Of a stretch of DNA of 64,000 bases, positions 17,795 to 46,055 are shown piece after piece. Source of the DNA: an uncultured bacterium (GTDB lineage: Bacteria; Patescibacteriota; Minisyncoccia; Phycocordibacterales; UBA6065); the NCBI GenBank assembly GCA_963841935.1, contig CAWJEP010000001.1, positions 10,487 through 74,486 on the forward strand. The letters are read 5' to 3'. The notes below the pieces were generated by a model. The model searched no databases. It was not told the origin of the DNA and saw only the letters and a program-made list of their open reading frames with translations. The translations under genes were made by a program, and so were the position numbers. Each line of letters begins with the position of its first letter. The first letter of the stretch is position 1.

Positions 17795-19470
17795 ACAAGT
17801 TTCAAAATTCTAACACGGAGTTCCGTCCTGTTTCCAAATGTCGATTTTTCCAAATTGCCGACGAAAGTTATCTTGTCGCCCTCTTTTATTTTTCGGATTT
17901 CCTCGTCGGCGAAAAATTGTATGGCTTTTACCGTGCCGTTTCCCGCCTCTCCGGCAGTAGGGCCCTTTTTGAAAAGAACCTCAAAATGATTTTTTTCTTT
18001 GCCGAAAGTTTTCGCCGAAGAAATTGAGACCCCACGGAAAAGAAACGCCGGCTTTGGATTGCCCATACCGTACGGTGAGAGTTTTGAAAGCGCGGCATAT
18101 AAAGAAACCGAAACATCGTCGGCGGAAAGTTCCGCGTCGTATATATCCGCCGGAGAGGTTTTTTCGACCGGCGGCAAATTGCCGAGAGCGACTTCCAATT
18201 CTTTTTCCAAATTGAAAACGGCTTCATTTGAAATGCTGAATCCGCCGGAAAACGCGTGGCCGCCGAATTCCATAAACACTCCCGGGCGCGCGGCGCGCAT
18301 AAGTTCGATGAGATTTACTCCGCCACCCGAACGAGCGGAACCTTTTATCACATTGTCCCCGTCCCTGCCCCAAAGAAAAACCGGGCAGGAAAATTCTCCG
18401 GCGAAAGTGTTCGCGGCAAGCCCCAAAAGCGACGGTCGCCAATTTGGATTGCCTAAAACGATGATTCTTCTCGAGGTCGCGTCCCTTTCGCCTACGATTT
18501 TTTTGATTTCTTTGACTAGAGCGGCAACGGTACCTTTGCGTTCATTGTTCACGTGTTCAAGTCGCGCGGCGAGTTTTTCAATCTCATCGCCCTCCTTCGC
18601 GGATAACAGATTGAAGGCGTCGAGAGGCGTGCCCATACGCGAGGCGGCGTTGATTCTCGGGGTAATGGAAAATCCTATGTCGTCTTCGCTTAAATTTTTC
18701 TTTTCCAAGCGCAAAACATTTATCAAGGCACCGAGTCCCGGTCTCTGGGTTTTTCTCATAACCACAAGCCCGTAGTGGGCGAAAACCCTGTTCTCGCCGA
18801 CAAGGGGCACCATATCGGAAAGAGTGGCTATGCCGACCATGTCGAGGAGCCATTTTTCCCAGCCGACGGGAACATTGAATTCCTCGCCGTGTTTTTTTAT
18901 AAACGCTTGCACAACTTTGAAAAAAATCGCCGAGCCGCATAGATTTTTTTCCGGATACGCGCACCCATCCTGTTTGGTATCGATGACGGCAAAAGCTCCG
19001 CTCAATTTTCCGTGAGTTTCGTGGTGGTCGGTAATAATGACGTCAATATTTTTGGACTTGGCGTAGGAAATTTCTTTGGCATCGGCAATGCCGCAGTCAA
19101 TGGTGAGCAAAACTTTCGCTCCGCGCTCGGCTATTTCGTCTATGGCGCCCTCATTTAGGCCGAAACCTTCATCGTGGCGATGCGGAATGTATATTTCAAA
19201 ATTTTTATGGCCGACTTTTTCCAAAAAATCCTTTGCTATGACCGCGCCTGGAATGCCGTCGGCGTCGTAATCGGAAAAAATCGCGATTCGCTCGCCTCCT
19301 TTCACCGCGCGATACAACCTCTCTATTGTTTTTTCCATCCCTTTCAAAAGAAAAGGGTCGTGGGTGTGAAGTTCGTAATCCGGATTTAAGAATTTTTCCC
19401 TTTCTTCGCGCGTTTTTATTCCTCTTTTTTCGAGAAGTAAATCAACGAGACCCTGCACGTCAGTTGCCAT
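17791..19470 (-). CDS. recJ: single-stranded-DNA-specific exonuclease RecJ
   Basis: The 559-aa product has DHH motifs (DYDADGI, ITDHH) plus DHHA1. Confidence 0.9.
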   Translation of the reverse strand: MATDVQGLVDLLLEKRGIKTREEREKFLNPDYELHTHDPFLLKGMEKTIERLYRAVKGGERIAIFSDYDADGIPGAVIAKDFLEKVGHKNFEIYIPHRHDEGFGLNEGAIDEIAERGAKVLLTIDCGIADAKEISYAKSKNIDVIITDHHETHGKLSGAFAVIDTKQDGCAYPEKNLCGSAIFFKVVQAFIKKHGEEFNVPVGWEKWLLDMVGIATLSDMVPLVGENRVFAHYGLVVMRKTQRPGLGALINVLRLEKKNLSEDDIGFSITPRINAASRMGTPLDAFNLLSAKEGDEIEKLAARLEHVNNERKGTVAALVKEIKKIVGERDATSRRIIVLGNPNWRPSLLGLAANTFAGEFSCPVFLWGRDGDNVIKGSARSGGGVNLIELMRAARPGVFMEFGGHAFSGGFSISNEAVFNLEKELEVALGNLPPVEKTSPADIYDAELSADDVSVSLYAALSKLSPYGMGNPKPAFLFRGVSISSAKTFGKEKNHFEVLFKKGPTAGEAGNGTVKAIQFFADEEIRKIKEGDKITFVGNLEKSTFGNRTELRVRILKLV

Positions 19471-19477
19471 ACATATT

Positions 19478-20194
19478 CTACGAGCCCAGCGCTGTTTTTA
19501 TCGCCGTTTCAATGTTCGTGGTCGGTTCGGCGCCTACCAAAAGCTGTTTACCTATAATCATGGCTGGTGTGCCGTTGACGCCAAAAGAAGCGCCTTCGGT
19601 TTTATCGGCCACGATTTCATTTTCATATGCCGTTGCCTGCGAAGTCATGAGAGATGACACCTGCGTCGCGTCAGAGGCGCCGAGGACTTGCGTGGTGATG
19701 GACATGATTTTTGCCTGTGTCGCCCAGCCGGAATTTTCTTCTCCTTGATTGTCGAAAATCGCTTTGTGCCAAGCGTAGAATTGGCTTGGCGCGACCGCCC
19801 AGACCGCGCGGGCGGCGATGGAAAGAGTTTCGGAATCATTACCAAGGAACGGAAAATCCTTGAAAACTATTTTTACTTTTCCCGTGTCGACGTAATCCTT
19901 GATAATTTGTGGCAAAGCTGTCTCTTCGTCCTGCTTGCAGAAAGGACATTGATAATCAAACCAATAAGCGATAGTTACCGGCGCGCTGGCGTCTCCGATG
20001 AACGGTTCGCCGCCGGTTTTCACGTTGCTTATGTCGACGGCTTGAGCGGACGGGTTGGCTATGTTTTGCGCTGGCGCGGTCGGCGAACCGGACGACCCGG
20101 GATGAAGAGCCCAGACGATGGCTAAGGCAATGATAATGGCGCCGAGAAGAATAGCCGCGGGAACGGTGAAAGCGTTTTTTTGTTCTGTATTCAT
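19478..20194 (-). CDS. DsbA-family thiol:disulfide oxidoreductase, membrane anchored
   Basis: The product has an N-terminal TM helix, a CPFC active site and a thioredoxin fold. Confidence 0.8.
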   Translation of the reverse strand: MNTEQKNAFTVPAAILLGAIIIALAIVWALHPGSSGSPTAPAQNIANPSAQAVDISNVKTGGEPFIGDASAPVTIAYWFDYQCPFCKQDEETALPQIIKDYVDTGKVKIVFKDFPFLGNDSETLSIAARAVWAVAPSQFYAWHKAIFDNQGEENSGWATQAKIMSITTQVLGASDATQVSSLMTSQATAYENEIVADKTEGASFGVNGTPAMIIGKQLLVGAEPTTNIETAIKTALGS

Positions 20195-23061: not shown

Positions 23062-23979
23062 ATGTCTAGCCACAAGAATACAAAAATAATATCCTGTCTT
23101 TTGACCGCGGCCGCCGTGTTTATGTTTGCCGGAGCGGCAAATGTTTTCGCTCAGACCGCTCTGCCTTCCGGCGCGGCGCCGGCGGCCAATCCGACCCTGT
23201 CATCTAGCCCGACAGTATCGACCGGGCCGACGGTAAGCCCGACTCCCTCGAGCGTAGCGCAATTGTCCAATTCTTCTTTGTCGAGCGGCGTGACGACGGC
23301 CCAAGGATCCAAGCCGACGGGAAACGTTAGCACGGGCGTTACCAACTCCGGCGTGACGGCGCCGAGCGGTAATTCAAACGTGACGACGAACCTCAACCCA
23401 CCCACGATAATCACGTCGTCCGGCAACACGGTAATAAACCCAACAACCGGCAAAGTCCAAAACGCCGCGCCGTCGGCAACGACAAACGGAAACGTGCTTT
23501 CCTCGCTTTCAGCCGGCGGAAGCGCCGTGACAAACACCGCGGGAAGCGTCACGAACGCGACTGGAGCCATCATCAATCCCATAACACCCCCGCAAAATCA
23601 GACTGTCTCGCAAGCGGCGACGCAACTCGGAAACAACGTCTTGCTTCTAGAAGAAAAATTGAACGGTGCCATATTCAAACTTGACGGCGCGCAAGCTAAA
23701 ATCATAGCCCGCGCGAACGCTCTCAGTTCCACGTCGTCAATTTCCGCGAAACTTTCCTCGGCGGACCAAGCGCTGACGATAGCGGCGCAAAAAGTTTCGG
23801 CCATACAGCAGATTTCCATACCGGCGACAAATCCCTTGTCCTCTTTGACGGCCCTTGAAGCGGCGGACACGGCGGCACGAGCGGCGATCGAGAACGCGGA
23901 GCAAGCTCTCGATAATGTCCTCATTTTGGTCGAAAAAGCCGAAGGTAGCCAGCTCATGAGTACGACGACCTTGCAGTAA
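23062..23979 (+). CDS. secreted Ser/Thr/Asn-rich low-complexity protein (hypothetical)
   Basis: It has a signal peptide, a long ST-rich region and a C-terminal Ala-rich helical segment. Confidence 0.5.
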   Translation: MSSHKNTKIISCLLTAAAVFMFAGAANVFAQTALPSGAAPAANPTLSSSPTVSTGPTVSPTPSSVAQLSNSSLSSGVTTAQGSKPTGNVSTGVTNSGVTAPSGNSNVTTNLNPPTIITSSGNTVINPTTGKVQNAAPSATTNGNVLSSLSAGGSAVTNTAGSVTNATGAIINPITPPQNQTVSQAATQLGNNVLLLEEKLNGAIFKLDGAQAKIIARANALSSTSSISAKLSSADQALTIAAQKVSAIQQISIPATNPLSSLTALEAADTAARAAIENAEQALDNVLILVEKAEGSQLMSTTTLQ

Positions 23980-23991
23980 TTTTTAAAACTT

Positions 23992-24258
23992 ATGGACCCA
24001 ATGAACATAATGCCGCAAAAAAAATCCCACGCCGAACTCATAACAATAATCGTTGTCGTTGTGATTATCGCGAGTGTCGGATTTTATTTCTGGGAAACAC
24101 TTCCGCGCCAATCTTCCGCGATTCCGCCCGCGAACACCGTGGTTCCGTTACCTCAAGTACAAGCGCTTCTAAATGGAACAACCACCGCGGAACAAGACCT
24201 GTCCACGGACGTCTTGAACGGCACGAACGTCGACCTGACTTCCGGAATCAGCCAGTAA
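23992..24258 (+). CDS. small single-TM protein with a G-x-YFW motif (hypothetical)
   Basis: The TM helix is ITIIVVVVIIASVGFYFWETLP. Confidence 0.4.
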   Translation: MDPMNIMPQKKSHAELITIIVVVVIIASVGFYFWETLPRQSSAIPPANTVVPLPQVQALLNGTTTAEQDLSTDVLNGTNVDLTSGISQ

Positions 24259-24259: not shown

Positions 24260-26320
24260 TTATTTATTCTCCAAAGCTTGAACCTCGGCTTTTAGCGAGT
24301 CTATTTCCGTTTGCTGTTCCTTTACCGCTTCTATTAGAGGCGCGACGAGATTTTGATATTCCACGGATTCAAGTCCGGTTTTGGGGTCTGTCTCCACCAA
24401 GTCCGGGAAAACTTTCTGCACGTTTTGAGCGATTAGACCTACCGACGGCTCGCCGTTGGCTATCCAATTGAACGTCACGCCGTTTAATTGTTCGATTTTT
24501 GAAATGGCGTCCGTAATCGGCTCTATGTTTTCCTTCAACCTTTCGTCCGAACCTTGAGACCATGTGCCCCAATACGTACCGTTGCCATAGAGACGGAATA
24601 TTCCCCCGCCGTTCGCTCCCGTATGCGCGCCGATGTCTACTTCGTTGTCTACTTGAAGAAGTCCGGAACAATTGCCGCAACCGCTCGTCGAGCCTTGAAT
24701 CCAAGTATATCCGTCAAGATACGTGGTAACGCCCGGCGTTACCAAAAACTGCAAGCTCGTAACGGCGAACTCTCCATCCGATTCCCCGCCGCCGCGTAGC
24801 CACGTGTAACCGGGCAAGTATAGCGAAGTCGAATTGTTCGGAGAATAAATAGTCCAGTTGCCTTGATTATTCAAAAGTCCGAACTCGCTCCCGTCCGCGT
24901 ATATGTAACCGCCACTTCCTCCGCCGTAAAGAACGTGAATGTTTCCGTTGACGGATAGAGATTGGTCCGGAGAAGCCGTGCCTATGCCGACAAAGCCGGG
25001 AAAATAAGTGTAGCCGCTCGTGCCGCCGTCGATTTCCAAATAACCGGCGGCGTCGCTATGAATACCGCCACGGGCTTGGAGTTGCGACTGAAAATATACC
25101 GTCCCACTATTGAAATACGCGCCACCGGGAACTATTATGTAGGACGAGGCCGAGATGTATGGGTTAGACGGATAGAAAGACATGTTGCCGTAAAACTCCG
25201 TCCCCGTTTGGTTGGCCGAAACATTGAGAGCCCAATTACCCTGATTGTTTAGAAGTCCGAAATTGCTTCCGTCGCTGTAAATATATCCCAAAACGCCGGA
25301 ATTATTGACCAAATCGATATTGCCGGCGACGGAAAGTTTTTGACCTGGACTCGCCGTGCCGATGCCTACGTTGTTGTAGACTTCCAATTCGAGAGGATAC
25401 GAGGTTATGCCTGTTTTGACTGCCTCGATGTGTCCGACGGAGCCGTCAAAAGATACTCCGACTCCCCCGGAAGTGCCGTCCCCGGGGTCGTAGGAGCCGC
25501 CGGCAAAAAGTCCCCTACCGGCCACGTCGAGTTGTGTGGAACTGCCCGGCACCACGTCCACGCCAACGCTGCCTCCGCTGTAATATATATTCGAACCGGA
25601 AGTCGTCCACTGACTACTCACGACGGAAGGCCAAGAGCTTATACAATTTCCCGCGAGACAAATCTCCGAACTCGCCCATAAATTTGCCAAGGCAAGTCCT
25701 TGTCCGCCGTAGACACTGCCGTTCGCGTCGCTTTCATAAAGCCATCCGTTAGAATAAAAATTGAGACATTGTGTGCCGCTCCCGCCGCAAATAACGCCAA
25801 GATTACCGTATCCGCCGGCGGTGGAATGAATAGCGTAATTTGAACTAAGGGCGCCAACGGTAACGGAGTTCGGCATTGACACGTTGTCCGTGCCATAAGG
25901 CACTTCCACCGCCCAGTTCGTGTTGCTACCAAGCAGTCCGAAACCGCCGGTGTCGCCGTACAAGACGCCCGAGCGCGTGGAACTATTAACAAAAGCATCT
26001 ATTCCGACACTTCCGCTGGAAGAATTTATTCTCTCAACATTGTTCCAATACGAACCCGTGACATCAAGCTTGTAAGACGGACTCGTGTTGCCTATACCAA
26101 CGTTTCCGTATTGGACGATGAGACCGTCTGCCGCGTTACCCGTGTTTAAAAGAAGACCTCCAGTCTTTGCTTGAGCCGTGCCGGAAATATTGAGAGGTGT
26201 GGAAGCGTTATTGCTCGGCGGAGTACCGGTCGGCCCAACCCATTGAGCGGATGCTATGACTGGAAATAAAAGAAAGAGGGAGATGCTAGCGAGGAGTATG
26301 AAGCGCTTTTGTGTGTTCAT
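24260..26320 (-). CDS. secreted tail-fibre-like repeat protein with C-terminal intramolecular-chaperone/autoprotease (peptidase S74-like) domain
   Basis: It has a signal peptide and repeated NVGIGT(A/S)SP..L.V.GNI motifs. The C-terminus reads SDERLKENIEPITDAISKIEQLNGVTFNW...GLIAQNVQKVFPDLV...LIEAVKEQQTEIDSLKAEVQALENK, typical of self-cleaving endosialidase/tail-spike chaperone domains. Confidence 0.7.
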   Translation of the reverse strand: MNTQKRFILLASISLFLLFPVIASAQWVGPTGTPPSNNASTPLNISGTAQAKTGGLLLNTGNAADGLIVQYGNVGIGNTSPSYKLDVTGSYWNNVERINSSSGSVGIDAFVNSSTRSGVLYGDTGGFGLLGSNTNWAVEVPYGTDNVSMPNSVTVGALSSNYAIHSTAGGYGNLGVICGGSGTQCLNFYSNGWLYESDANGSVYGGQGLALANLWASSEICLAGNCISSWPSVVSSQWTTSGSNIYYSGGSVGVDVVPGSSTQLDVAGRGLFAGGSYDPGDGTSGGVGVSFDGSVGHIEAVKTGITSYPLELEVYNNVGIGTASPGQKLSVAGNIDLVNNSGVLGYIYSDGSNFGLLNNQGNWALNVSANQTGTEFYGNMSFYPSNPYISASSYIIVPGGAYFNSGTVYFQSQLQARGGIHSDAAGYLEIDGGTSGYTYFPGFVGIGTASPDQSLSVNGNIHVLYGGGSGGYIYADGSEFGLLNNQGNWTIYSPNNSTSLYLPGYTWLRGGGESDGEFAVTSLQFLVTPGVTTYLDGYTWIQGSTSGCGNCSGLLQVDNEVDIGAHTGANGGGIFRLYGNGTYWGTWSQGSDERLKENIEPITDAISKIEQLNGVTFNWIANGEPSVGLIAQNVQKVFPDLVETDPKTGLESVEYQNLVAPLIEAVKEQQTEIDSLKAEVQALENK

Positions 26321-26341
26321 ATTGGTATCATAATAATACTA

Positions 26342-26602
26342 CTATTTCGCCTGAAGTGAGTCGAGAATGTTCTGTTCGCTTGAACTTGAGGTCGTCTTTT
26401 GCGGCGCAGACGTGGCGTTCAGACTGTAGAGAGCGCGTTTCTGCGCCGGCGTAACTCCCTTGAAAAAATTCGGTTGCGCCGACAGATTCTCTAGGGTTGT
26501 CTTTGTGATTTGCGATTGGTTTGAAATAAGAAAGTAGCTGACAACAAAATAAATGATACCGGCAAGAGCGAGAACAATGATTGCTACAAGTATTTTTTTC
26601 AT
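26342..26602 (-). CDS. small single-TM protein (hypothetical)
   Basis: MKKILVAIIVLALAGIIYFVVSYF is the TM helix, followed by an ST-rich tail. Confidence 0.4.
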   Translation of the reverse strand: MKKILVAIIVLALAGIIYFVVSYFLISNQSQITKTTLENLSAQPNFFKGVTPAQKRALYSLNATSAPQKTTSSSSEQNILDSLQAK

Positions 26603-27801
26603 TATATTTCTTGAAATTGTGGATTAAACGTCGTTGGCGTGATGATTAGATTTTTTACCGAAGAACTGACGCCCGATGACGTGCCTTGGAGAGTGATGTT
26701 GCAGGGATTCGGACTCCCGGAGCAATATGAAGCGGTCAATGGTTCATTGATTTCCAATTGGAAAGTGAAGCTGCCGTTTGGACCGATGATTACCGGGCTT
26801 GGGTTCGCGGTGTAAGCGCCGCCGTTTACCGAGTAGAGCGCCGTGGTCGAAGCATTGGGCATCGTCGGATAACCGGAAATGGAAACCGTGACGTTGCCGC
26901 TAAATCCGCCGACGGGATTTACCGTTATGGTTTTTGTCTGCGACTGTGACCAGCCGGCGGGCAAGAAGCTTATTTTTATCGTGTCGTCTGGACCAAGAGA
27001 GAAACCCGGCGGCTGCGAGCCGACGGCGAACGAGACGTTTGACGATGCCACGGTGTTGCCGCCGGACGTGCAGGTTATATTGAAAGCGTAAGAACCGGTG
27101 GTAAGTCCTTGGGTTGCCGTCGAGCCGGACGAAGTGATGCCCGTCACGGTGGTAAACTGCGTGGCGCCCGAAGAAGTTTTCGAAAGCGTGCACGTGGCTC
27201 CGGAAAGATTTACCAGAGTGTAGACAAGATTCACGACCGTACCGTAAGGCACATTATTGTTGTTGGCGACCGATGTCCCGAGTGGAGATTGGGCGTCGAG
27301 GCCGACGCTCGAAGAAAGTTGCACGCCGTTCGTCCCGGCCGCGTTGAAACTTACCCAGCCGAGAAGGCCGCTGTCCCAAGCGTAGCCGTCGAAAAAAGAA
27401 CCCGAAAGCGTGACGCCGTAATTCGTGCCGGAAAGAGAAATCCAGCCGTCCCAACCGTTTCCGTCGGCGGAAACGGCCTTCGCCCAGCCGATGAGATTTG
27501 TGCCGCTCATCTGGGCGTTCTCCGCCGACGTTCCCGAGCCGCTGGGGAATCCGGAGAGACCGCCAAATTGTATCCAGCCCACGGAATCGGACCACGCGTA
27601 GCCCGTGAGTGTGCCGTCGTTGTTGTCCGTCACACCATAGTCCACGGCGCCGCAGGTGCTCGTGTTCGTGCAATTGAAACTAATCCACCCGGCATCATCG
27701 GACCACGCCCAACCAGCCATATTGTTTTCCGTTCCTGCGTGGGCAAACGCCGGTAGGATAAAAATAGAAACCGAAATTAAAAATAGTGCGAACCTCTTCA
27801 T
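26602..27801 (-). CDS. secreted protein with G(W/Y)AWSD..GWISF repeats and a C-terminal domain shared with the TSP1 protein
   Basis: It has a signal peptide and four or more GWAWSDDAGWISF-like repeats. The last 130 aa or so align with the C-terminus of 29728-31532 and end ...TPTTFNPQFQEI*. Confidence 0.6.
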   Translation of the reverse strand: MKRFALFLISVSIFILPAFAHAGTENNMAGWAWSDDAGWISFNCTNTSTCGAVDYGVTDNNDGTLTGYAWSDSVGWIQFGGLSGFPSGSGTSAENAQMSGTNLIGWAKAVSADGNGWDGWISLSGTNYGVTLSGSFFDGYAWDSGLLGWVSFNAAGTNGVQLSSSVGLDAQSPLGTSVANNNNVPYGTVVNLVYTLVNLSGATCTLSKTSSGATQFTTVTGITSSGSTATQGLTTGSYAFNITCTSGGNTVASSNVSFAVGSQPPGFSLGPDDTIKISFLPAGWSQSQTKTITVNPVGGFSGNVTVSISGYPTMPNASTTALYSVNGGAYTANPSPVIIGPNGSFTFQLEINEPLTASYCSGSPNPCNITLQGTSSGVSSSVKNLIITPTTFNPQFQEI

Positions 27802-27822
27802 CCTTCTAATAATATCATTATT

Positions 27823-28323
27823 TCAAAGTTTCCTGTCTCGAATGCCTAGTTTGTATCCGACAAAGCAAAAAATGGGGTGAATGGCGAGTATCAAAAGGAC
27901 GCTCAATAAATAAGCGGAAAGCGTTATGTATCCCATGAAAAAAACTATGGCGCCGGTAAAAATTATGTAATTACCGTGGTCTACTACCGGCACATAACCG
28001 CCGTCGGGAACATGAAATCTTCTTTTTATGAAACTGCCGAGAATGTGGCCGAAAAAACAGCCGAAACCTATTATGATACCGACCGGGGAATAAAAAATCT
28101 GAATTAAAATTCCGACAAGAAGAGAAACTACCAGCCCCCACCATGTGGCGGATTTTCCGATAAGTCTCTCGCCCCAAAGACGGAGCCCTCCGTCGAACGG
28201 CGGATCAAAATTTTCCAAATGATAAAGTTTTTTGAAGGCTCCGAGAAAATTGTGGGACATATTCACCAGTCCGCAGAGAATGGCGAACCGTAAAGCTTCC
28301 ATGAATATAAAATAATTCATCAT
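27823..28323 (-). CDS. CTP-transferase-1 superfamily membrane protein, closest to CDP-archaeol synthase (CarS/DUF46) or short CdsA/dolichol-kinase-like enzymes
   Basis: The 166-aa product has GKSATWWG (compare G.GKTWEG/WRG), GHILGSFIKRR (compare GDL.ESFLKRR) and VVDHGNYIIFTG (compare LLDQLDFVIGA of CarS). About five TM helices. Confidence 0.5.
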   Translation of the reverse strand: MMNYFIFMEALRFAILCGLVNMSHNFLGAFKKLYHLENFDPPFDGGLRLWGERLIGKSATWWGLVVSLLVGILIQIFYSPVGIIIGFGCFFGHILGSFIKRRFHVPDGGYVPVVDHGNYIIFTGAIVFFMGYITLSAYLLSVLLILAIHPIFCFVGYKLGIRDRKL

Positions 28324-29721
28324 TTAATATGTGACCACGAAATTATTCACCGGAAAGGCTTCCACGGTATGAATTCCTCCGGCCAAAATCAGGAGTTCGC
28401 TCTCGACATCGACGATTCTCGGTATGCATATAAAATAATCAAAGGTCACGGCGTAATAATTCCATCCGTTTTTCTGTCCGAATAAATGGATGTCGGAAAT
28501 GTTCGCGAGACTGTGTGTCGCGGCCGGCTTCACGAGTGGCTCCTTGGAAACGACAAAAAGAGTGCTCGTGGCATTCACGCGCCAATTGTCACACACAACA
28601 TTGTCAAAAGATATCGGGAAACGATTTGTCGGGTCGCCGGTTTCTTTCGCTATATTTCCTATGGTCACGGGACTTGTCGTGGCGATGTCATAGAAATACA
28701 AATCCCCGATTTTTTCCAAAAATCTCCCCGGCGCGGACGCGTCATAAGTTCCAAGATAAACATTTTGATAAGCTATGGACGTCGTGTCGTAAGAAATGTC
28801 TCCTTCCGTTGAAACAAATACCGGGACTAAAAAACAAATACCCAAAAGCAAAACGGCGGTGGCGCCGAAGACGCGAAAGCGCGAGGCGCCTCTTTCCGCG
28901 AGAAAAAACCATCCGAAATACACGAGTTCCATGCCAAAAACATGTTCAAGATACACCGATACTTGAGTGTGACTTATGGCGCCGAAGGGATAGGCGATAA
29001 TAACGGCGATGGGCGTGACTAGAGAAAGAGCAACGGGGAAAATCCAGCCGCGGAAACTTTTAGGTGCGTAGCCGTAGCACATAACGAGCAGGATGAGAAA
29101 AGCCGGAATAGCTTCGGAGTTCAAAAGTCCTCCGTCGAAAATATTTTTCAAAAAAGAAAGCAGAGCGATGGCGAAAAGTATCTGGAGGCCGAATCTTTTT
29201 TTATTTTTCCCGACAAAATCGAACAGGAGCCATATTCCAAGGATAGACACGGTAAGACATCCGGCAAGTCCGACCCAGCCGACCCATGTCGGCAAAATAT
29301 TGAGGTACGCGAAACCAAAATCGGCTTTTGTCTCGAGCGCGAGCCGAAGCTGGGTCGGAAAAAAAGATGAAACCAGACCGAAAGGAAATTTCAAAACATG
29401 AGTGTGAAAGAAATGCGTCGTAGAAATATCCCTTTCCCCTATCGCTGACAGAACATAGTTCGCCGGAACGGCGAGCATTTTATAAAAGTAGAAAGTTACG
29501 CCAAGACCGAGAAGGAAAATCGCCGTCGAAACGATGAAAAATATATTTTTCAGGGGAAATTTCCGCGCGACAGGCGTTTCGACGGCGATTTTTTTTCGCC
29601 ACGCGATGATATTTACGACAGCCAAAAGCAGAATGGCGAAAAGAAAGAGAAAAACTTTCACGTCACTGCGACCCGCGGCGAAAAGGTCGGTAATAATGTG
29701 CAGAAAGAAGAAATAATTCAT
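28324..29721 (-). CDS. large polytopic membrane protein with a C-terminal extracytoplasmic domain (hypothetical; GT-C glycosyltransferase-like or sorting-enzyme-like)
   Basis: The 465-aa product has 10 or more TM helices followed by a soluble tail of about 150 aa. It is tightly coupled to the flanking genes. Confidence 0.55.
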   Translation of the reverse strand: MNYFFFLHIITDLFAAGRSDVKVFLFLFAILLLAVVNIIAWRKKIAVETPVARKFPLKNIFFIVSTAIFLLGLGVTFYFYKMLAVPANYVLSAIGERDISTTHFFHTHVLKFPFGLVSSFFPTQLRLALETKADFGFAYLNILPTWVGWVGLAGCLTVSILGIWLLFDFVGKNKKRFGLQILFAIALLSFLKNIFDGGLLNSEAIPAFLILLVMCYGYAPKSFRGWIFPVALSLVTPIAVIIAYPFGAISHTQVSVYLEHVFGMELVYFGWFFLAERGASRFRVFGATAVLLLGICFLVPVFVSTEGDISYDTTSIAYQNVYLGTYDASAPGRFLEKIGDLYFYDIATTSPVTIGNIAKETGDPTNRFPISFDNVVCDNWRVNATSTLFVVSKEPLVKPAATHSLANISDIHLFGQKNGWNYYAVTFDYFICIPRIVDVESELLILAGGIHTVEAFPVNNFVVTY

Positions 29722-29727
29722 CGAAAC

Positions 29728-31532
29728 TTATATCTCCTTAAAATTCGGATTGAAACTGTTTGGACTTACGGTGAGGTTAAATGTCGTGGATGTGTCGCCG
29801 CCGGAAGCGTCAAACGTCACATAGCAGGAATTGGTAAAGCCCGAAGGGAATTGTATTTGGATATTGAGACCGACATTTCCGGACGGCGCTCGATAATTAC
29901 CGGAACCGTCGTCGCTCATTACCGTGGAAGGACTTTGAGTGAATGCTCCGCCGTCAAAAGAGTAGCCGGAGGGATTCGGCTGGCAGGTGGTTGATTGAAC
30001 GGTCACAGTTACGGGAGAACTGAATCCTCCCGTAGGATTGACTTCCAGCGTGCTTACGTTCGTCGTGCCGCCTTCGTTGGCTACGAACTGTATGCTTGCC
30101 GAAGACGGGCCGGAAAGAGTAAAACCCGACGTGGGATTGTTGCCGTTACTACCGCCATTGTTACCGCCGTTGGTACCGCCGTTGGTACCGCCGTTGGTAC
30201 CCGTTCCAGTCTGACCCGATGGATAAGTGCACGGAGCGGTTCCCTCATAGTTGGTTGCGTTTGGATCTGTGCAAAGCTCCGAATATGTGCACGGTAGAGC
30301 GCCTCCGTAATTATTTGCGTTCGGGTCGACGCAAAGTTGCGCCGACGGATATGTGCACGGCGCGTAGCCGTCATAATTCGACGCGCTCGGGTCCGTGCAT
30401 TCCGCCGGACAAGAAGCCGTCGTGGAAATAACCGACCCGTCCCAACACGTCTGGGTTGTGGGATTTGTCGTGCACGACTGAGTGTTGCAATCCTGACTTT
30501 CCGAACTGCTTCCGGAACAAGTCGCGCCGCCGTTTGCCGGAGTGGGATTCGTGCAAGTTCTGGTCTGTGTTTGATTTCCGCCGCCACAAGTAGCAGAACA
30601 AGTTCCCCATCCAGACCAAGCCGACCAGCCACCGTTTACGGGACATACTTGGGTGTTGCAAGTTTGAGAACTGCTTCCGGAACAAGTCGCGCCGCCGTTT
30701 GCCGGAGTGGGATTCGTGCAAGTTCTGGTCTCCGTACCACCGCCGCAAGTTTCTGAACACGTTCCCCAACTTGACCAGCCGCCGTCGACTTTCGTGGGCG
30801 GAGTAACGCACGCTGGTTCAGTACATGTTTGAGTTTGCGTGCCTGTGCCGCTAGTATCTCCGGAGCAATCAGCACCGCCGTTTGCCGGAGCGGGATTCGT
30901 ACACGTTTTGGTCTGTGTACCGGTACCGCAAGTTACACTGCACGTTCCCCAAGCCGACCATTCGCCATTTACAGGACACGCTTGGGTATTGCAAATTTGA
31001 GATTCGGAACTGTCTCCGGAACAATCGGCTCCGCCGTTTGCCGGAGCAGGATTCGTGCAAGTTCGCGTCGCGGTTTGCGTGCCGCCACCGCAAGTGGCTG
31101 AACATGTTCCCCAACTTGACCAGTCGGACCAGCCGCCGTCCACCTTTTGTGGTGTCGGATTTGTTGAGGGACAATCGCTAAGAGCGCTTTGAGAGAACTC
31201 ATTCGTCACGCCGTCGGGACACGTCCAGTAACAAGGTTCTGTTCCGCGGTAGTTTGTTGCGGTGTGATCTAAACACGCGTTACCGCAAAATAGTCCGCAC
31301 TCGCCATTTGGATACGATGTTGTGGGGTCATTGGGACAAGTGCAGTCCGGGAGACTTCCGCCGCCTCCATAACCGCCACCGCCAAAAGGACCGCAGTTAA
31401 TGGCTGAGTTACTGCATGCGCCGCCATAATACCGCCAGATTCGCTCCCCACTTGGGCAAAAGCTAAATGAGAAGATAAAGAAAAAATCAGAGAGAAAATA
31501 AATATTCTTGATAAATATAATCTGGTATTCAT
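29728..31532 (-). CDS. secreted Cys-rich protein with four thrombospondin type-1 repeats; signal peptide in a different frame (frameshift near 31441-31457)
   Basis: There are four copies of W(S/T)[18 protein letters not shown]..RTCTNP.PANGGA.CSG....Q.CNTQ.CP (WSxW and CSVTCG motifs). Three C(T/V)DP.A.NY....PCTY repeats follow. Then comes a TNGG linker and a C-terminal domain ending [10 protein letters not shown]. The signal peptide [26 protein letters not shown] starts at ATG 31532-31530 in another frame, and the main frame is open upstream to about 31520. Confidence 0.7.
30370..31160. repeat. intragenic tandem repeats of about 165 bp (TSP1 modules)
   Basis: Two copies are near-identical: aactgcttccggaacaagtcgcgccgccgtttgccggagtgggattcgtgcaagttctggtct at 30504-30565 and again at 30669-30731. 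Two more diverged copies lie upstream. Confidence 0.7.
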
Positions 31533-31542
31533 ATTTTTATTT

Positions 31543-32949
31543 TTATATGTTTCCACTCATGGTCGGTGGTTGAGGCAAGGGCTTTTTCTTTTTTAACACA
31601 ACCACAATAGCCAAAATAACAAGAACGCCTGCGATTGCATAATATATGTACATCGTGGTGTTGGATGTCCATTGAGTCTTCGGTGACGGACACCTGTTCG
31701 CGTCACATATGTACAGAACGGATGAGGACGCGAGGATTGTCCCGTACTGGTCGGTAGTCTTTATGCTGAGAGTTAATGGTTCAAAAATATTTGTCGTGGG
31801 AGAAAAATGAATCTGGAAAGGATAGGATGAGGCGTTTCTTTCGGAGAAACCTCCGGACCAGACGCTCTTGCCAAGAGAATCAACAAGAGAAAGGTCAACC
31901 GTCGTCGTGGCCGCGGTGTTGGAGTAATTTTGGGTGAGGCATCCTGCCACGCTGTTTGAAACTCCAGCGGAAATTGGAAAATTGGAGAGGTAAAGCGAGC
32001 GGGCGCCCGGCTCCACGATGTCACTTCGACCTATGCGAAGAGAGAACATTGATTCTTTGTCGCCATCCTTTAGTTCTCCGACCAAAAGATATTTTGCGTG
32101 GACAAAATTGTTGTACGTGAAAGAAACGACACTATTTTTGTTCGGCGAAAGTTGAACGGAATCGGTTTCCGTGGCAACAAGCGCTGTGGGATTTATAAAA
32201 TTGCCGCTATATAGATACCAACCGACCGTGACATTATGAGAAGCGGTGTATGTATTCTCTACGCCAACTGAAGTAACCGCCGTCGGCACGGTAATTGTCG
32301 AAAGCATCTGCGTCATCGGCACAACGCCGTTCACTTTCATCGTCGGCAAATCAAAAAATGATGTTTGTTCTTCCGTTCCGGTAACGGCCAACGGATATGT
32401 GGCTAGCGGAATATTGAGATATTCGTTTCCTCCAATGGCAAATTGGTCGGAACCATTTAAAAACAAGTCAACTTGATATGGTCCGGTAACTAAATCTCGT
32501 GGCACGGGGTAATTGAAAGAAAATGACGCTGTTGCTTTGGGGTTTAGGTATATTCCCGTCAAAGGAATAATCCGGTCCACCGTGTCTGTCGCCATATCAT
32601 AGGAAGAACCGGATTTTTTTTGAAGTTTTACTACGCGAGCGACAAGAGTTAAGTCGGAAACCGGATAACTGTTGAGATTATCGATAGTGCCGGCAATAAT
32701 CACATTGCTACCGGCAGAGACTTTGGTATTACCCACAAGAAAACTCGCTCTAACGAGAGAGTTAGCCAAAAGACATGTCGAAGGGAAAATCAGTTGCGTC
32801 GGCGTGGTGGACGAAAACGAAATACCGGCTCCCAACTGAGAAACGTCGGCCGCCGAGACAAATTGAAAAGAAAGGAACGGTAGGAGAAAAAAAACAAAAG
32901 AAAATATAAGACGCCTAGAACTCATGCCGAAAAGTATACCAACTGACAT
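31543..32949 (-). CDS. type-I membrane surface protein (signal peptide, beta-rich ectodomain, C-terminal TM anchor plus KKKK stop-transfer)
   Basis: The 468-aa product ends with ...YYAIAGVLVILAIVVVLKKKKPLPQPP. It overlaps the downstream gene by 14 nt. Confidence 0.55.
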   Translation of the reverse strand: MSVGILFGMSSRRLIFSFVFFLLPFLSFQFVSAADVSQLGAGISFSSTTPTQLIFPSTCLLANSLVRASFLVGNTKVSAGSNVIIAGTIDNLNSYPVSDLTLVARVVKLQKKSGSSYDMATDTVDRIIPLTGIYLNPKATASFSFNYPVPRDLVTGPYQVDLFLNGSDQFAIGGNEYLNIPLATYPLAVTGTEEQTSFFDLPTMKVNGVVPMTQMLSTITVPTAVTSVGVENTYTASHNVTVGWYLYSGNFINPTALVATETDSVQLSPNKNSVVSFTYNNFVHAKYLLVGELKDGDKESMFSLRIGRSDIVEPGARSLYLSNFPISAGVSNSVAGCLTQNYSNTAATTTVDLSLVDSLGKSVWSGGFSERNASSYPFQIHFSPTTNIFEPLTLSIKTTDQYGTILASSSVLYICDANRCPSPKTQWTSNTTMYIYYAIAGVLVILAIVVVLKKKKPLPQPPTMSGNI

Positions 32950-33009
32950 GGAAATAAAAAGGGCTTCTCTTCGGTATTACTACCTTGGAGAAGCCCTTGA
33001 GAACTAATA

Positions 33010-34482
33010 CTACTCGTCATTGGAAGTCAGTCCTTTACTTGTCGATTGCCCTAGCACCTTCTTACGAATGCGTGCCAGTTCTGCGTAGACGATTGGTCTT
33101 AGAACATGAGCGCTCGCCGCTTCCTGAAGAAACAAACGAGCCGTTTCGTCCTTGCCAGCTTCCACATAGTAAAGACCAATAACGGACATGAGCGCCGGAT
33201 CGCGAGAACCGTCACTGTACGGCTTGAGCAGAATTGCCTCTGCTCGAGCGCCGTATAGCGGAATGTATGGCGACAACACCGAACTCTTGGCCATATATCC
33301 CATCTCCTTAACGATGAAGTTGCCCTGAATCCGAGCGCGAGTGACCGGGTCGGCATCCGATAGATGCAGTTCCGGAATCACGACCGAATCAACCTTCAAG
33401 AGGTTGAGTGGATTCTCCATCGCCTGCGGCAAATAGTCCGAAAGCTCTTTGGTCACATCGGCGAAACCCATGCCGAAACACTGCCTAAACAGTGCCTCGG
33501 TAGCAGGCTCGCGCGATGACTTGTCGACGAAATCCCACAGTGCCTTGCGGCGCGCGTGAGTCTCGTCTACAAATACCCAATACAAGAAAAGAGAGCCTTC
33601 GTAATGCCACAAGTCCAGCTGGTACTGCGACCCTTGCTGCGCCTCGCCGAACGGTCCGGTAAGGAAGCTTCCCATAGGTATGAGTGACGCCGGTTCGACT
33701 CTGTAGAGCTTGCCGTCGTCATCCTTGAATACCTTATAGCCTTGTGGATTTGGGGTTCCAGCGGTTACCGGAACATTAATCCTCGGCCAATACACCGATG
33801 GAATCGTCAGTGCCTCCTCGTCAGACCAGCGGATTTGCTGATAGAGAGAAAACACCGTCGACTGGAACCAGTAAGGAAGCGTAGGGATCCGACGCTCAAG
33901 CATGTTGAGCACATAGCCGATGGTTAGGCTGATGCCCCTGCGATCGCCATCATTTAGCTCGACCATCATCGTGGTGGATTCGGAATCCGTGAGACTGACT
34001 TGGGGAACCATGCCATAAAGCGATGATACCCTGCCGTTGGAGGTTACTCTCGAGGATCTTTCCGAAGACTCGGAATCTCCAACGGCTTTCACGATTTCCT
34101 TGCCCATCTTGTCTCCCATTTCTGGGGGGATGAGGATGAGTGTTATTGGCGCGGTGCGCTCGAACTGTAAACGCGACGGCAGAATCTCTTCCAACTCCGC
34201 TAGTCGTTGCGTAAACTGTCCGACAAACCACAGGGTCGTACTGTCGCTACACTTGGAGATGACTTCGAGGCCCGGAACAGATAAGTATGTCCAAGGCTTC
34301 GTCCCCTTCTGCGGATTTTCCTCCGTAACCATAAATGGCGGGAGATCTACCCTCTTACCTTCGCGAAACGCCTTGAGCTCTTGGTCGCTCCTGGCATCCG
34401 CGTTGATGTTCCTGACAAAGAGTCCGAGTGCGACGAATGCCGCAACAAGAACTCGAATCACTAACTTGTTGTTGAGATGCAT
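33010..34482 (-). CDS. secreted hypothetical protein (490 aa)
   Basis: It has a signal peptide and no recognisable family. It is the first gene of the minus-strand surface operon. Confidence 0.5.
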   Translation of the reverse strand: MHLNNKLVIRVLVAAFVALGLFVRNINADARSDQELKAFREGKRVDLPPFMVTEENPQKGTKPWTYLSVPGLEVISKCSDSTTLWFVGQFTQRLAELEEILPSRLQFERTAPITLILIPPEMGDKMGKEIVKAVGDSESSERSSRVTSNGRVSSLYGMVPQVSLTDSESTTMMVELNDGDRRGISLTIGYVLNMLERRIPTLPYWFQSTVFSLYQQIRWSDEEALTIPSVYWPRINVPVTAGTPNPQGYKVFKDDDGKLYRVEPASLIPMGSFLTGPFGEAQQGSQYQLDLWHYEGSLFLYWVFVDETHARRKALWDFVDKSSREPATEALFRQCFGMGFADVTKELSDYLPQAMENPLNLLKVDSVVIPELHLSDADPVTRARIQGNFIVKEMGYMAKSSVLSPYIPLYGARAEAILLKPYSDGSRDPALMSVIGLYYVEAGKDETARLFLQEAASAHVLRPIVYAELARIRKKVLGQSTSKGLTSNDE

Positions 34483-34698
34483 TTTTGTGCACTCCTTTCT
34501 GTTTTGATTGTTACTTTGTGTGTGAAACTGACAAAAATGTCAATGTACTATCACCTACATTATACTACAATGACTAGGCACTTGTCAACTACCCTAAAAA
34601 GTGTTCTGCTCATTGACTCCCCATTAGCCCCGTGGTAGGCTTATTTCGTTACAAGTTCGCCTCGCGGCGGACTTCTTTTATTAATAGACCACATATAT

Positions 34699-35865: not shown

Positions 35866-37850
35866 ATGAATTCATACATTATTTTCGCCCTCGGAAGCGC
35901 GGTGCTCGCGATTGTTTACGGACTCGTATTGATAAAAAATATTTTGGCGAAGCCCGCTGGCAACGACAAGATGAAAGAAATCGCCCTCGCCATTCAGCAA
36001 GGCGCCAAAGCGTATCTCGCGAGGCAATACAAAACTATCGCTGGAATCGCCGTCGTTCTCTTTATCGTTTTGTGGCTCGCGCTCGGACTTACGCTCGCTT
36101 TAGGATTCCTTACCGGCGCGATACTTTCCGCTCTTGCCGGATTTATCGGTATGAATGTTTCCGTTCGCGCCAATTCTCGAACGGCTGAAGCCGCGAGAGG
36201 CGGTATTGACGCCGCGCTCAAACTGGCTTTTAACGGCGGCGCGGTCACGGGACTTCTCGTCGTCGGTCTCGCCCTTCTCGGCGTCACTTCTTTCTACGCG
36301 ATTACCGGCGGCGTTGATTCGCTCATCGGGCTCGCCTTCGGAGCGTCGCTTATTTCCGTTTTCGCCCGCCTTGGCGGAGGTATTTTTACAAAAGCAGCCG
36401 ACGTTGGCACCGACCTCGTCGGTAAAGTCGAAGCTGGAATCCCCGAGGATGACCCGAGAAACCCCGGAGTCATCGCCGACAACGTCGGAGACAACGTCGG
36501 AGACTGCGCCGGCATGGCCGCCGACCTTTTTGAAACTTACGCCGTCACGACTATCGCCTCGATGATGCTCGCGTCAGTGATATTTCCGGGAAATCAAAAC
36601 GCCGTCATATATCCTCTCGTCCTCGGCGGTGTGGCGATAATCGCTTCCATCATCGGCACTTGGTTCGTACATATGGGCAAATCAAAAAATATTATGGGTG
36701 CGATGTACAAAGGCCTCGCCGTTGCCGGAGTTCTCGCCGGAATCGCTTTCTACTTCGTGACGAAAGTTTTGATGGCGGCAAACGGACAATTTTCCACTGG
36801 CAATCTTTTTGGTTGCGCCGTCATCGGACTTCTCGTTACCGCGGCACTTGTCGTCATCACCGAATATTACACTTCAACCAAATACGCTCCGGTTAAATCC
36901 ATCGCCAAAGCGTCGGTCTCCGGTCACGGCACGAATATTATTCAAGGTTTGGCCATGTCGATGAAATCAACCGCTTGGCCGCTCATTAGCATCGTCGTCG
37001 GAATTCTCTTCGCTTATCACTTCGGAGGCCTTTACGGCATCGCTATCGCCGCGATGAGTATGCTTTCGATGGCCGGAATCATTATCGCCATTGACGCTTA
37101 CGACCCATCACCGACAACGCCGGTGGCATCGCAGAAATGGCCGACCTTCCGCAAGAAGTCCGCGATGTTACCGACCCGCTTGACGCCGTCGGCAACACGA
37201 CCAAAGCCGTTACCAAAGGTTATGCCATCGGCTCCGCCGGACTCGCGGCTCTCGTTCTCTTCGCTTCTTACACTCAAGCTACTCACGGACTTCATTTCGA
37301 GCTCGGTGACCCGCGTGTCATCGTTGGACTCTTTCTCGGAGGACTTCTTCCTTATTACTTCGCGGCGCTTTCGATGGAAGCCGTCGGCAAAGCAGCGGGA
37401 CAAGTCGTCGAAGAAGTGCGAAGGCAATTCCGTGAAATCAAAGGCATTATGCAAGGCACGGCCAAGCCAGATTACGCTCGTTGCGTCGACATCGTGACTT
37501 CGGCGGCAATCAAAGAAATGATTCTGCCGGCACTCATTCCTGTTCTCGCTCCGATTGTCGTCGGTTTCGTCCTCGGACCGGTTGCTCTCGGCGGACTTCT
37601 CGTCGGCTCGATTGTCACCGGACTTTTCGTTGCCATCTCGATGACTTCCGGCGGCGGCGCTTGGGACAACGCGAAAAAACTTATTGAACAAGGCGAGCAC
37701 GGCGGTAAAGGCAGCGACGCTCACAAAGCGGCAGTCACCGGCGACACCGTCGGCGATCCTTACAAAGACACCGCCGGTCCCGCCATCAATCCGATGATTA
37801 AAATCCTGAACATTGTGGCGCTTCTTATCGTCAGCTTCTTAATCAAATAG
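35866..37850 (+). CDS. hppA: membrane-bound proton-translocating pyrophosphatase (H+-PPase); apparent -1 frameshift near 37101-37104
   Basis: The motifs are [38 protein letters not shown] and then [21 protein letters not shown] in the downstream frame. Frame 1 reads ...[12 protein letters not shown], whereas the expected [22 protein letters not shown] is restored by inserting one G at tacg|accc. Confidence 0.9.
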
Positions 37851-38258: not shown

Positions 38259-39284
38259 ATGTCACACAATCATTCATACAAAGTCTCGGTAAAAAAGCTT
38301 CCAAAAAGCCAGCTCGAAATCGAGTCTGAAATTCCCGCGGACGAGTTTTCAGCCCATATCAAAGACGCCGTTGACGAAGCGGTGCGCGAAGCGGAAATAA
38401 AAGGCTTTCGCAAAGGCGCCGCGCCGGAGAAACTCGTCCGCGAGAAAATCGGCGATGACGCGCTTCTTCACGAAGCCGCGAGTGCCGCCATCTCTCACGC
38501 CTACGGCCACATCGTCGAAGCGGAAAAAATAGACGCCATCGGCAGACCGCAAGTGACCATCACGAAAATCGCCGAAGGCAATCCTTTGGGATTTAAATTC
38601 GTCACCGCCGTGGTGCCGGAAATAAAAGATTTCGATTACAAAGAAATCGCCAAAAAAGAAAATAAAAAAGAAAAATCCAAATCGGAAGTTACCGAAAAAG
38701 AATTTGCCGAGACACTTGAAAATGTTTTGAAAAATTATCAGCCGAAGCGACAAAATTGGAAAAAGCTCCGGAACTTTCGGACGAGCTCGTGAAAAAATTC
38801 GGCGAATTTTCTTCGGCCGACGATTTCAAAAAGAAACTTCGCGAACAAATGCTTGCGGAAAAAGAACAAAAGGAAGTGGAGAAAAAACGCGTAGCTCTTA
38901 TAGATGCTTTGGTCTCCGGAGTCTCCATAGAAATTCCGGAAATACTTGGTGCAAAGCGAGCTTGACAGGATGCTTTCGGAAATGAAAAACGACGTTTCAC
39001 GGATGGGACTTTCGTGGACTGACTATCTGAAACACTTGAAGAAAACCGAGGATGATATGAAAAAAGATTGGAACGAAGCCGCGAAAAAGAGAGTGATGCT
39101 CGAACTCATCACCGAACACATAGCCAAGACGGAAAAAATTTCCGCCGACGAGAAAAAAGTTTCGGAGGAAGTAAAACACATTCAAGAACACCACAAAGAC
39201 ATAGACGCCGCGCGCGCCCGTTCGTATTTTGAACACATTTTCCAAAACCAAGCGGTCTTCGAATTTCTAGAGGGACAAAAGTAA
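38259..39284 (+). CDS. tig: trigger factor (short form without a PPIase domain); two apparent frameshifts (about 38740-38756 and about 38948)
   Basis: The N-terminal ribosome-binding domain has GFRKGAAPEKLVREKIG. The middle segment ...KAPELSDELVKKFGEF... and the C-terminal ...VQSELDRMLSEMK... lie in three different frames. The joins sit at an A-run and a GG-run. Confidence 0.75.
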
Positions 39285-46054: not shown

Positions 46055-46055
46055 T

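Follow-up and report, generated by a model that had tools for sequence, protein, structure and literature searches.

We examined a cluster of eight minus-strand genes, g1 to g8, which occupies positions 24260-34482 of a 64-kb window (the whole stretch of DNA that was analysed, from contig CAWJEP010000001.1) of an uncultured member of the UBA6065 lineage of Patescibacteriota. At its centre lie g4, encoding a polytopic membrane protein, and g5, encoding a relative of the CDP-archaeol synthase CarS (CDP, cytidine diphosphate); this conserved gene pair is the main subject of the present report. A first-pass annotation, made from the sequence alone, had described the cluster as a packed operon of surface proteins, and all eight open reading frames (ORFs) are indeed found where it had placed them. 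From g1 to g8 the spacers measure 60 nt (g1-g2), 12 nt, 6 nt, 0-3 nt and 21 nt, followed by a 1-nt overlap and a further 21 nt. No convincing terminator was found in these internal spacers, which, together with a promoter match upstream of g1, is consistent with a single operon, although it does not prove one. The features of the cluster are as follows; numbers beginning with L, here and below, denote loci compared with it.

34559-34588, minus strand: promoter-like site of the sigma-70 type, TTGACA-18-TATAAT, a sequence match only, with 12/12 consensus positions, about 77 nt 5' of g1 in the divergent spacer with nusA
33010-34482, minus strand: g1, 490 aa, first gene of the cluster, with a hydrophobic segment at the N-terminus; orthologues at the same place in L002, L006 and L009
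31543-32949, minus strand: g2, 468 aa, type I membrane protein with a signal peptide, a C-terminal transmembrane (TM) helix and a KKKK tail, without LPXTG; orthologues include one in L024
29728-31530, minus strand: g3, modular secreted adhesin-like protein, signal peptide from the ATG at 31530; as a bare ORF, 29728-31209
30445-31122, minus strand: four thrombospondin type 1 (TSP1) repeats of g3
30223-30399, minus strand: three CxDxxAxNY...C repeats of g3, between the TSP1 cassette and the C-terminal domain
29731-30135, minus strand: C-terminal domain of g3, with the terminus FNPNFKEI
28324-29721, minus strand: g4, 465 aa, eight predicted TM helices, apparently a new family (profile search and AlphaFold2 model)
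29290-29472, minus strand: predicted outward loop of g4, residues 84-144, with a beta-hairpin, H106, H108, K111 and D134
28327-28779, minus strand: predicted extracytoplasmic alpha/beta C-terminal domain of g4, with the conserved Cys pair C377 and C432
27823-28323, minus strand: g5, 166 aa, divergent CarS-like integral-membrane CTP-transferase (CTP, cytidine triphosphate; matches to Pfam PF01864 and PDB 5GUF)
26602-27801, minus strand: g6, 399 aa, secreted, with GW(A/x)W...GW(I/V)xF repeats at 27346-27714 and a C-terminal domain at 26605-27018
26342-26602, minus strand: g7, 86 aa, TM helix at the N-terminus and a Ser/Thr-rich tail; conserved in position, poorly in sequence
24260-26320, minus strand: g8, 686 aa, secreted fibre protein with a Peptidase_S74 chaperone domain at the C-terminus (24263-24550)

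The whole cluster is conserved in relatives. All eight genes stand in the same order in L002/L003, L006 and L010, whose g4 proteins are 78-81% identical to that of the window, while L023 retains g4 to g8, and the contig-truncated L024 holds a g2-like gene, then a gene for a g3-like protein ending in NVFNPNFQEI, and then a g4 relative. The cluster is divergent from nusA in every case. At positions 10001-12613 of L009, g4 breaks off at about residue 330 next to the oppositely oriented transposase gene (rve) of an insertion sequence (IS), and the cluster lacks its downstream half; as the IS element truncates g4 there, g4 is dispensable. The richness of the secreted neighbours in Ser, Thr and Asn, pointed out in the first-pass annotation, was borne out by counting: these residues make up a fraction of 0.26-0.38, versus 0.10-0.14 in pgk, nusA and EF-G. 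Signal peptides are present in g3, g6 and g8, but none of the three has a TM helix, a lipobox or an LPXTG anchor. No family in Pfam, NCBIfam or PHROGs was matched by g1, g2, g4, g6 or g7 (a Gram_pos_anchor match of g2 in Pfam, E 0.08, lies below threshold), nor did PDB sequence searches return anything for g1, g4 and g6, and in PHROGs g8 and, weakly, g5 were the only operon proteins with a match.

The g4 protein belongs to a rare family. A word-indexed homologue search gave just six relatives of g4 and four of g5, and it was an exhaustive search with profile hidden Markov models (HMMs) that opened up the g4 family, recovering 139 clusters (50% identity) from a set of 1.84 billion proteins. Among the matches listed, most are near full length (about 410-530 aa) and about a dozen are shorter fragments. 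Nine matches were found in a motif-limited scan of 185,579 species genomes and six loci in a metagenome scan, whereas 2.9 million viral contigs yielded no relative. Seventy-one members were aligned, and although they are only about 20% identical to the g4 of the window, seven residues are invariant (H106, K111, G136, D196, G197, G198 and Y423) and seven more are conserved in over 90% of sequences (G17, H108, D134, F188, P369, C377 and C432). None of the 71 members matches a consistent Pfam family, and g4 itself is without a Pfam or NCBIfam match at E<=0.1.

Structure prediction, which had been suggested as a check on this protein, gave a poor AlphaFold2 model when only six sequences were used (predicted local distance difference test score, pLDDT, 58.6), and that model was replaced by a confident one built on the 71 sequences (pLDDT 93.1, predicted template modelling score 0.91). 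The latter has eight TM helices, with a beta-hairpin and two short helices in the long loop that connects TM2 to TM3, and an alpha/beta domain at the C-terminus (residues 315-460). Four short loops (43-56, 171-177, 217-224 and 275-283) carry 15 Lys/Arg residues and the remaining short loops none. Since loops rich in Lys and Arg are expected inside the cell by the positive-inside rule, the conserved His, Lys and Asp residues and the domain with the Cys pair would all face outward; the D196-G-G motif sits on the outward loop that follows loop 84-144. Foldseek found no match to the model at E<=0.001 in PDB or BFVD. Judging from the model and the profile searches, g4 is thus apparently a new family with a new fold.

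As for g5, its proposed likeness to CarS proved correct at the level of the family. It matches PF01864 with E 7e-15 (55.9 bits against a cut-off of 22) and aligns with the solved CarS of Aeropyrum (PDB 5GUF, E 2e-5) over the GSFxKRR...P..D core. Both GSFIKRR and P..D are present in this core, while the final acidic residue is Asn in the g5 of the window and Asp in several other members of such pairs. It differs from the canonical CDP-archaeol synthase, however: g5 is bacterial, falls far below the NCBIfam CarS equivalog cut-off (NF003114; 65.2 bits versus 148), and is paired with g4 and, elsewhere, with pilins. Proteins of its type form a CPR subfamily of their own (CPR, Candidate Phyla Radiation): within CPR their scores are 80-190 bits (46-63 for L016/L017), and against an archaeal CarS 41-59 bits. 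Archaeal ether-lipid genes were seen neither near g5 nor among the scanned ORFs of the window, which represents 64 kb of genome. The wider CTP-transferase superfamily comprises CDP-lipid synthases (CdsA, CarS) as well as CTP-dependent polyprenol kinases such as dolichol kinase. The mechanism of CarS has been described (PMC9385802). We also observed a match of g5 to phrog_32313, a phage family without assigned function (E 1.9e-6), which indicates that CarS-like genes are also found in some viruses.

One indication of what g4 and g5 may do comes from their company in other genomes, the pair being conserved across Patescibacteria. About 14 independent loci outside the window clade were collected from the species-genome scan, the metagenome scan and look-ups of family members. 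The distance between g4 and a CarS-like gene could be assessed in 13 loci, and in 12 of them it is at most 2 kb, the CarS-like gene being in tandem, divergent or convergent; the ranking of g5 proteins by similarity parallels that of the g4 proteins. Also recurrent is an N_methyl type IV pilin gene, a link absent from the first-pass annotation: it adjoins g4 in 11 of 13 loci, and in nine of these it immediately precedes g4 in the same orientation, the usual order being pilin, g4, CarS-like gene. Above-threshold matches to the pilin methylation motif (PF07963) come from two genes of L012 and from L013, L014 and L016, and precomputed matches exist for L025, L028, L029 and L030. Pilus assembly genes may be near as well. 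At L011, the closest outgroup of the window clade, the pair is the first element of a block that also contains PilB- and PilC-type genes (matches to T2SSE and T2SSF) and, between them, a putative PilT-like ORF.

Two of these loci deserve a separate description. L012 (1227-5876) contains a pilin gene, g4 and a CarS-like gene, followed by a second g4 paralogue and a second pilin gene on the opposite strand; one CarS-like gene common to two pilin-g4 pairs suggests that each g4 is specific for its own pilin. L015 (DASRUO010000153.1, 1-9890) is an archaeal contig, as seen from its Nre_N match, on which genes for a T2SSE ATPase and two T2SSF proteins lie 2 kb from a g4 relative and a CarS-like gene. 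The g4-g5 module hence crosses the boundary between bacteria and archaea, and the CarS-like protein of this contig gives equal bit scores to the CPR type and to the canonical archaeal type.

Genes connected with sugars recur in the same surroundings. L014 contains two GtrA genes, one that overlaps the stop of its CarS-like gene (GtrA family, 37.7 bits, above threshold) and another nearby, and in L020 a weak GtrA match lies between g4 and the CarS-like gene. In L021, genes for a VTT/DedA-like protein (weak match), a glycosyltransferase of family GT2 (241 aa), a PAP2_C protein, a pilin, g4 and a CarS-like protein follow one another on one strand, and in L016/L018 and L019 genes for nucleotidyl-transferases (NTP_transferase) come directly after the CarS-like gene.

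The window itself presents a different arrangement. There is no pilin gene in its 64 kb, and no type IV pilus or glycosylation gene was found among its larger ORFs, the smaller ones being unscanned. Both sides of the pair are instead taken by g3 and g6, secreted proteins with a common C-terminal domain. This common domain had been noticed in the first-pass annotation and is readily detected (BLASTP E 2e-9, phmmer 5e-14), the g3 and g6 families being otherwise about 30% identical; among all sequences compared, it is confined to the two genes that flank g4-g5. When nine g3/g6 domains were aligned, the densest invariant run proved to be the terminal P..FNP.F.E[I/F], standing at the extreme C-terminus in 9/9 (the terminus of g6 is FNPQFQEI), and we infer from this conservation that the FNPxFxE[I/F] tail is a recognition element. 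The pilins encoded upstream of g4 form one family, with an extension rich in Gly, Asn, Ser and aromatic residues after the last conserved strand (Y.IYA..LE). Eight of nine such extensions have an aromatic end, and five of nine have Ser at position -2 or -3. Pilins encoded downstream of the pair (L016, L017 and L028) or away from it (two in L018) are without such an ending; an exception is one distant pilin of L014, which ends in Tyr. As the pilins are related to one another, this pattern is suggestive only as a clue to recognition.

The reading to which we give most credence, although we would put it slightly below an even chance, is that g4 and g5 carry out a lipid-donor-dependent decoration of the surface protein encoded beside them, glycosylation being its likeliest form. 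In such a scheme, g5 would make or recycle an activated or phosphorylated membrane lipid at the cytoplasmic face, and its product could be either polyprenyl phosphate, through a reaction of the dolichol-kinase type, or a CDP-lipid. A lipid-linked donor, most likely carrying a sugar, would then get to the outer leaflet, where g4 would move the donor group onto the neighbouring protein. The ancestral neighbour may have been a type IV pilin, as across CPR and in one archaeon, here replaced by g3 with its TSP1 repeats and g6 with its GW repeats. The rest of the surface structure would be made up of g8, as a trimeric self-cleaving fibre, of the membrane-anchored g2 and g7, and of g1. The enzyme activity, the chemistry of the donor, the identity of the substrate and the role of the tail are all inferred here. 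A role of the cluster in attachment to a host or partner, as had been proposed, is plausible.

This reading has parallels among known systems. One is provided by the pilin cassettes of Pseudomonas aeruginosa, pilA-tfpO/pilO and pilA-tfpW-tfpX, in which a polytopic membrane protein is likewise encoded directly downstream of the pilin gene. TfpO acts on its pilin at the outer face and modifies a C-terminal serine, and several g4-adjacent pilins end in S-[F/Y], comparable to that target. On the other hand, TfpO is of the Wzy_C/O-antigen-ligase type and TfpW is a GT-C protein, and g4 lies outside both families by HMM and by fold: none of the 71 members has a Wzy_C match, and no WaaL-like fold was matched. 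Moreover, the neighbour of g4 in the window is not a pilin, and we know of no CarS-like partner in the Pseudomonas cassettes. Another parallel is offered by the three-component Gtr-type systems, made of a flippase-like GtrA, a GT2 enzyme GtrB and a variable polytopic Gtr(type) protein (for example CsbB/GtcA/YfhO). Several g4/g5 loci similarly combine a GtrA-family gene, a small GT2 gene and a poorly conserved outward-facing polytopic protein, with a presumed extracytoplasmic target. The constant partner of g4, however, is the CarS-like CTP-transferase, GtrA and GT2 being only occasional, and g4 matches no phage structure in BFVD, where phage Gtr(type) proteins would be expected to be represented. 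The kind of system, a modifying enzyme encoded beside its surface substrate, is known; what is new is the g4 family and a bacterial offshoot of CarS as its partner.

Several points weigh against a sugar or lipid-borne decoration by g4. No homology or fold similarity links this protein to any known transferase. CarS enzymes are, to our knowledge, CDP-lipid synthases and not kinases, so that the idea of a kinase leans on the wider superfamily. Ser, Thr and Tyr are all missing from the FNPxFxE[I/F] tail, as is any N-glycosylation sequon; the tail itself cannot accept a glycan in the classical way and would more probably serve for docking. L013 has a pilin and g4 with no CarS-like gene nearby. The pilin-adjacent loci number only about a dozen and, because their pilins are homologous to each other, these cases are not fully independent. 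Finally, no GtrA, GT2 or NDP-sugar gene (NDP, nucleoside diphosphate) occurs among the larger ORFs scanned in the window, where the smaller ORFs were left unscanned.

In the first-pass annotation the layout had been likened to loci in which substrates accompany their processing enzyme, as in sortase, exosortase or archaeosortase systems. The logic of that comparison is strongly supported by the conserved placement of g4-g5 beside genes for secreted proteins or pilins, but membership in any of these families is not: neither g4 nor any of the 71 members gave an exosortase, archaeosortase, sortase or rhombosortase HMM match. An LPXTG sortase system is likewise not supported, there being no sortase match and the TM helix and KKKK tail of g2 being without LPXTG. 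One may still imagine g4 as a new protease or transpeptidase of the outer face, which would cleave the C-termini of g3, g6 or the pilins and/or couple them to a lipid derived from the CarS-like enzyme, so that the pair would be a hitherto undescribed system for sorting or lipidation, particular to ultrasmall symbionts among CPR bacteria and certain archaea, which would join C-terminal tails to the head group of a CDP-activated lipid or decorate them with it. Archaeosortase ArtA with PssA/PssD, and the C-terminal domain (CTD) of the type IX secretion system (T9SS) with PorU, provide analogues. As in sortase/LPXTG, exosortase/PEP-CTERM, archaeosortase/PGF-CTERM with PssA/PssD and T9SS CTD/PorU systems, the putative substrate genes flank the putative processing gene, g3 and g6 share a C-terminal element, and an enzyme of a lipid pathway (g5) is the partner. 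The invariance of FNPxFxE[I/F] at the extreme C-terminus in nine of nine orthologues from two paralogous families fits this idea, and so do the aromatic ends of the pilin extensions; g3, g6 and g8 are secreted but anchorless, and lipid anchoring would explain how g3 and g6 stay on the cell; and the conserved Glu, Ser, His and Lys residues of g4, with its two Asp-Gly motifs, could form a hydrolase site. Yet the membrane part of g4 contains no invariant Cys that might serve in catalysis, the only conserved ones, C377 and C432, being in the extracytoplasmic domain. The g3 and g6 proteins end three residues past FNPxF with no TM helix after the motif, whereas all sortase-type systems known to us use a tripartite signal of motif, TM segment and basic tail. 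A lipid anchor at the C-terminus of a pilin is hard to square with pilus assembly, and the GtrA, GT2 and NDP-sugar genes nearby speak for sugars. We regard sorting as unlikely; if it were true, g4-g5 would parallel sortase, archaeosortase or glycosylphosphatidylinositol (GPI) anchoring in function without being homologous to any of them. The other proposal of the first-pass annotation, a GT-C glycosyltransferase with a polyprenol-phosphate enzyme, survives in part, as GtrA, GT2, PAP2 and NDP-sugar genes at several loci give it contextual support. The GT-C family itself could not be upheld. The general architecture of g4 would fit, the protein being polytopic and having both an outward loop and a C-terminal domain outside the cytoplasm, and so would the Gtr-like gene context, but 0/71 members match GT-C families (PMT, STT3, ArnT/PMT_2, GT87, YfhO and others), Foldseek was blank, and the long outward loop connects TM2 with TM3 instead of following TM1. 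That g4 is a genuine but highly divergent GT-C enzyme is accordingly very improbable and, as a claim of membership, largely refuted.

Two further explanations dispense with any modification of the neighbouring protein. On one hand, g4 might be non-enzymatic, a membrane platform, chaperone or anchor for filaments or fibres, with g5 tuning the local lipids, much as TfpY, TfpZ and TfpX are accessory proteins encoded after pilA in Pseudomonas. Its strict placement beside pilin or surface-protein genes and the lack of any recognisable catalytic family would agree with this, and its extracytoplasmic C-terminal domain could bind partners. The seven invariant and seven nearly invariant residues of such a divergent family, however, are mostly His, Lys and Asp on outward loops, as is typical of a catalytic or ligand-binding site, and an obligate CTP-transferase partner is hard to explain for a scaffold, which makes this option quite unlikely. 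On the other hand, the two genes might serve the biosynthesis or salvage of membrane lipids, g5 as a CDP-lipid synthase and g4 as a head-group or remodelling enzyme, clustered only loosely with envelope genes. That g5 belongs to the CarS family and that PAP2 and VTT/DedA-like genes adjoin the pair in L021 speaks for such a role, but g4 is too rare for a housekeeping enzyme, being limited to 139 clusters and nine matches in the species scan, and is dispensable, as its truncation in L009 shows; its conserved site would face outward, and co-directional adjacency to a pilin recurs in nine loci. We consider this decidedly unlikely.

Whichever chemistry applies, the locus reveals a conserved and unannotated pair: the fold of g4, predicted with confidence, has neither a solved nor a viral relative, and g5 represents a bacterial branch of an "archaeal" lipid enzyme. 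Both genes are tied genomically to pilins and, in the window clade, to modular adhesin-like proteins with TSP1 repeats of the eukaryotic type. CPR bacteria, or Patescibacteria, live attached to host cells and rely on pili and surface adhesins. Because the locus gives proposed substrates, candidate catalytic residues and a candidate recognition tail, modification of surface proteins in CPR becomes directly testable, and a role of g5-type proteins as partners of g4 would provide an explanation for CarS homologues in bacteria that does not involve the lipid divide. Pilin glycosylation in Saccharibacteria was called unexplored in a recent study (PMC11623550). Full-text searches of the literature turned up no account, for CPR, of a linkage between a CarS-like gene and pilins or surface proteins, and no prior description of TSP1 in Patescibacteria was found.

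The TSP1 repeats of g3 had been read as part of a secreted protein, and the domains and the secretion signal are both there, but the gene is not intact and the signal peptide lies in another frame. The match to TSP_1 in Pfam is strong (E 1.9e-35, 121 bits, four repeats), and a regular expression finds four W..W..C..C...C...C...C..C units, so the Trp motif and the six-Cys pattern of TSP1 are satisfied. These canonical WxxW-type repeats resemble those of eukaryotic thrombospondin type 1 adhesins; unlike them, they are in a bacterial secreted protein and form a swappable cassette. The centre of g3 is indeed exchangeable, with TSP1 in the window and in L002-L004 and a different module in L006-L009. 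Constant across the orthologues are a Cys-rich N-terminal module, which follows the signal peptide, the CxDxxAxNY repeats and the C-terminal domain. In full, the small Cys motif reads C-x-D-P-x-A-x-N-Y-x4-6-C-x-Y, in three tandem copies; it is kept in the L006 and L009 orthologues that are without TSP1, and no Pfam family matched it.

With the intact orthologues in L002, L006 and L009 as a guide, the defect of g3 was placed as a 1-nt deletion between about 31425 and about 31449. Similar lesions affect two essential genes of the window: the H+-pyrophosphatase gene hppA (35866-37850) has a frameshift at about 37104, where a base is missing in a GG run within a conserved 11-residue motif, and the trigger factor gene tig (38259-39284) has an out-of-frame stretch at about 38780-38960. 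A programmed frameshift in g3 was rejected in view of these like defects. Because essential genes show the same kind of defect, the frameshift is probably a sequencing or assembly error and not a sign of a pseudogene or of recoding, and the pattern suggests homopolymer-type assembly errors throughout the contig.

The tail-fibre-like character of g8 was likewise confirmed, for its C-terminus. Peptidase_S74 is matched at residues 591-642 (E 3.9e-18, 65.9 bits against a cut-off of 22), and the sequence G-S-D-E-R-L-K at residues 590-596 (SDERLK within 24533-24553) contains the Ser-Lys dyad motif of the self-cleavage type. With its S-D-x-R-x-K motif, this domain resembles the intramolecular chaperone of phage tail fibres and endosialidases, but g8 is a chromosomal, cellular gene for a protein with a signal peptide and is not phage-like outside the C-terminus. 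That the region might be a prophage or a tail-fibre remnant is brought to mind by the matches of g8 to many tail-fibre PHROGs and to PDB 6F45, and by the weak match of g5 to phrog_32313. The g8 matches, however, are limited to the final ~100 aa, that is, to the chaperone domain, and the remainder is unmatched; there is no further phage gene in the region, the slot between nusA and tpiA-pgk is fixed in relatives, and the viral contigs held no g4 relative. Given the fixed chromosomal synteny and the lack of other phage genes, we ruled out a prophage remnant, the probability of which is next to nil. The central part of g8 varies between relatives. In g8 and its L002 and L006 orthologues the mature N-terminus opens with a conserved W-x-G-P-T-x-x-P-P-x-N...P-L-N-x-S...Q-x-K-x-G, and NVGIGTxxP repeats recur along the protein.

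Some neighbouring genes should also be mentioned. Two plus-strand ORFs at 23062-24258 converge on the end of g8, encoding a 305-aa Ser/Thr/Asn-rich secreted protein with a helical C-terminus and an 88-aa TM protein; neither matched a family, and the gene content at this position differs among relatives, L002 having a Cys-rich repeat protein there. Just past tpiA-pgk, at 15737-20194, lie genes for ComEC (the competence channel), RNase H, RecJ and a DsbA-like thioredoxin, and the presence of the last fits g3, because the latter has many extracytoplasmic cysteines (35 Cys). On the other side, at 45600-51191, four tRNA genes (45600-46947) are followed by genes for a CCA-adding enzyme, an Exo_endo_phos nuclease and a tyrosine recombinase (49983-51191), which may be of the Xer type or else mark the boundary of an integrated element.

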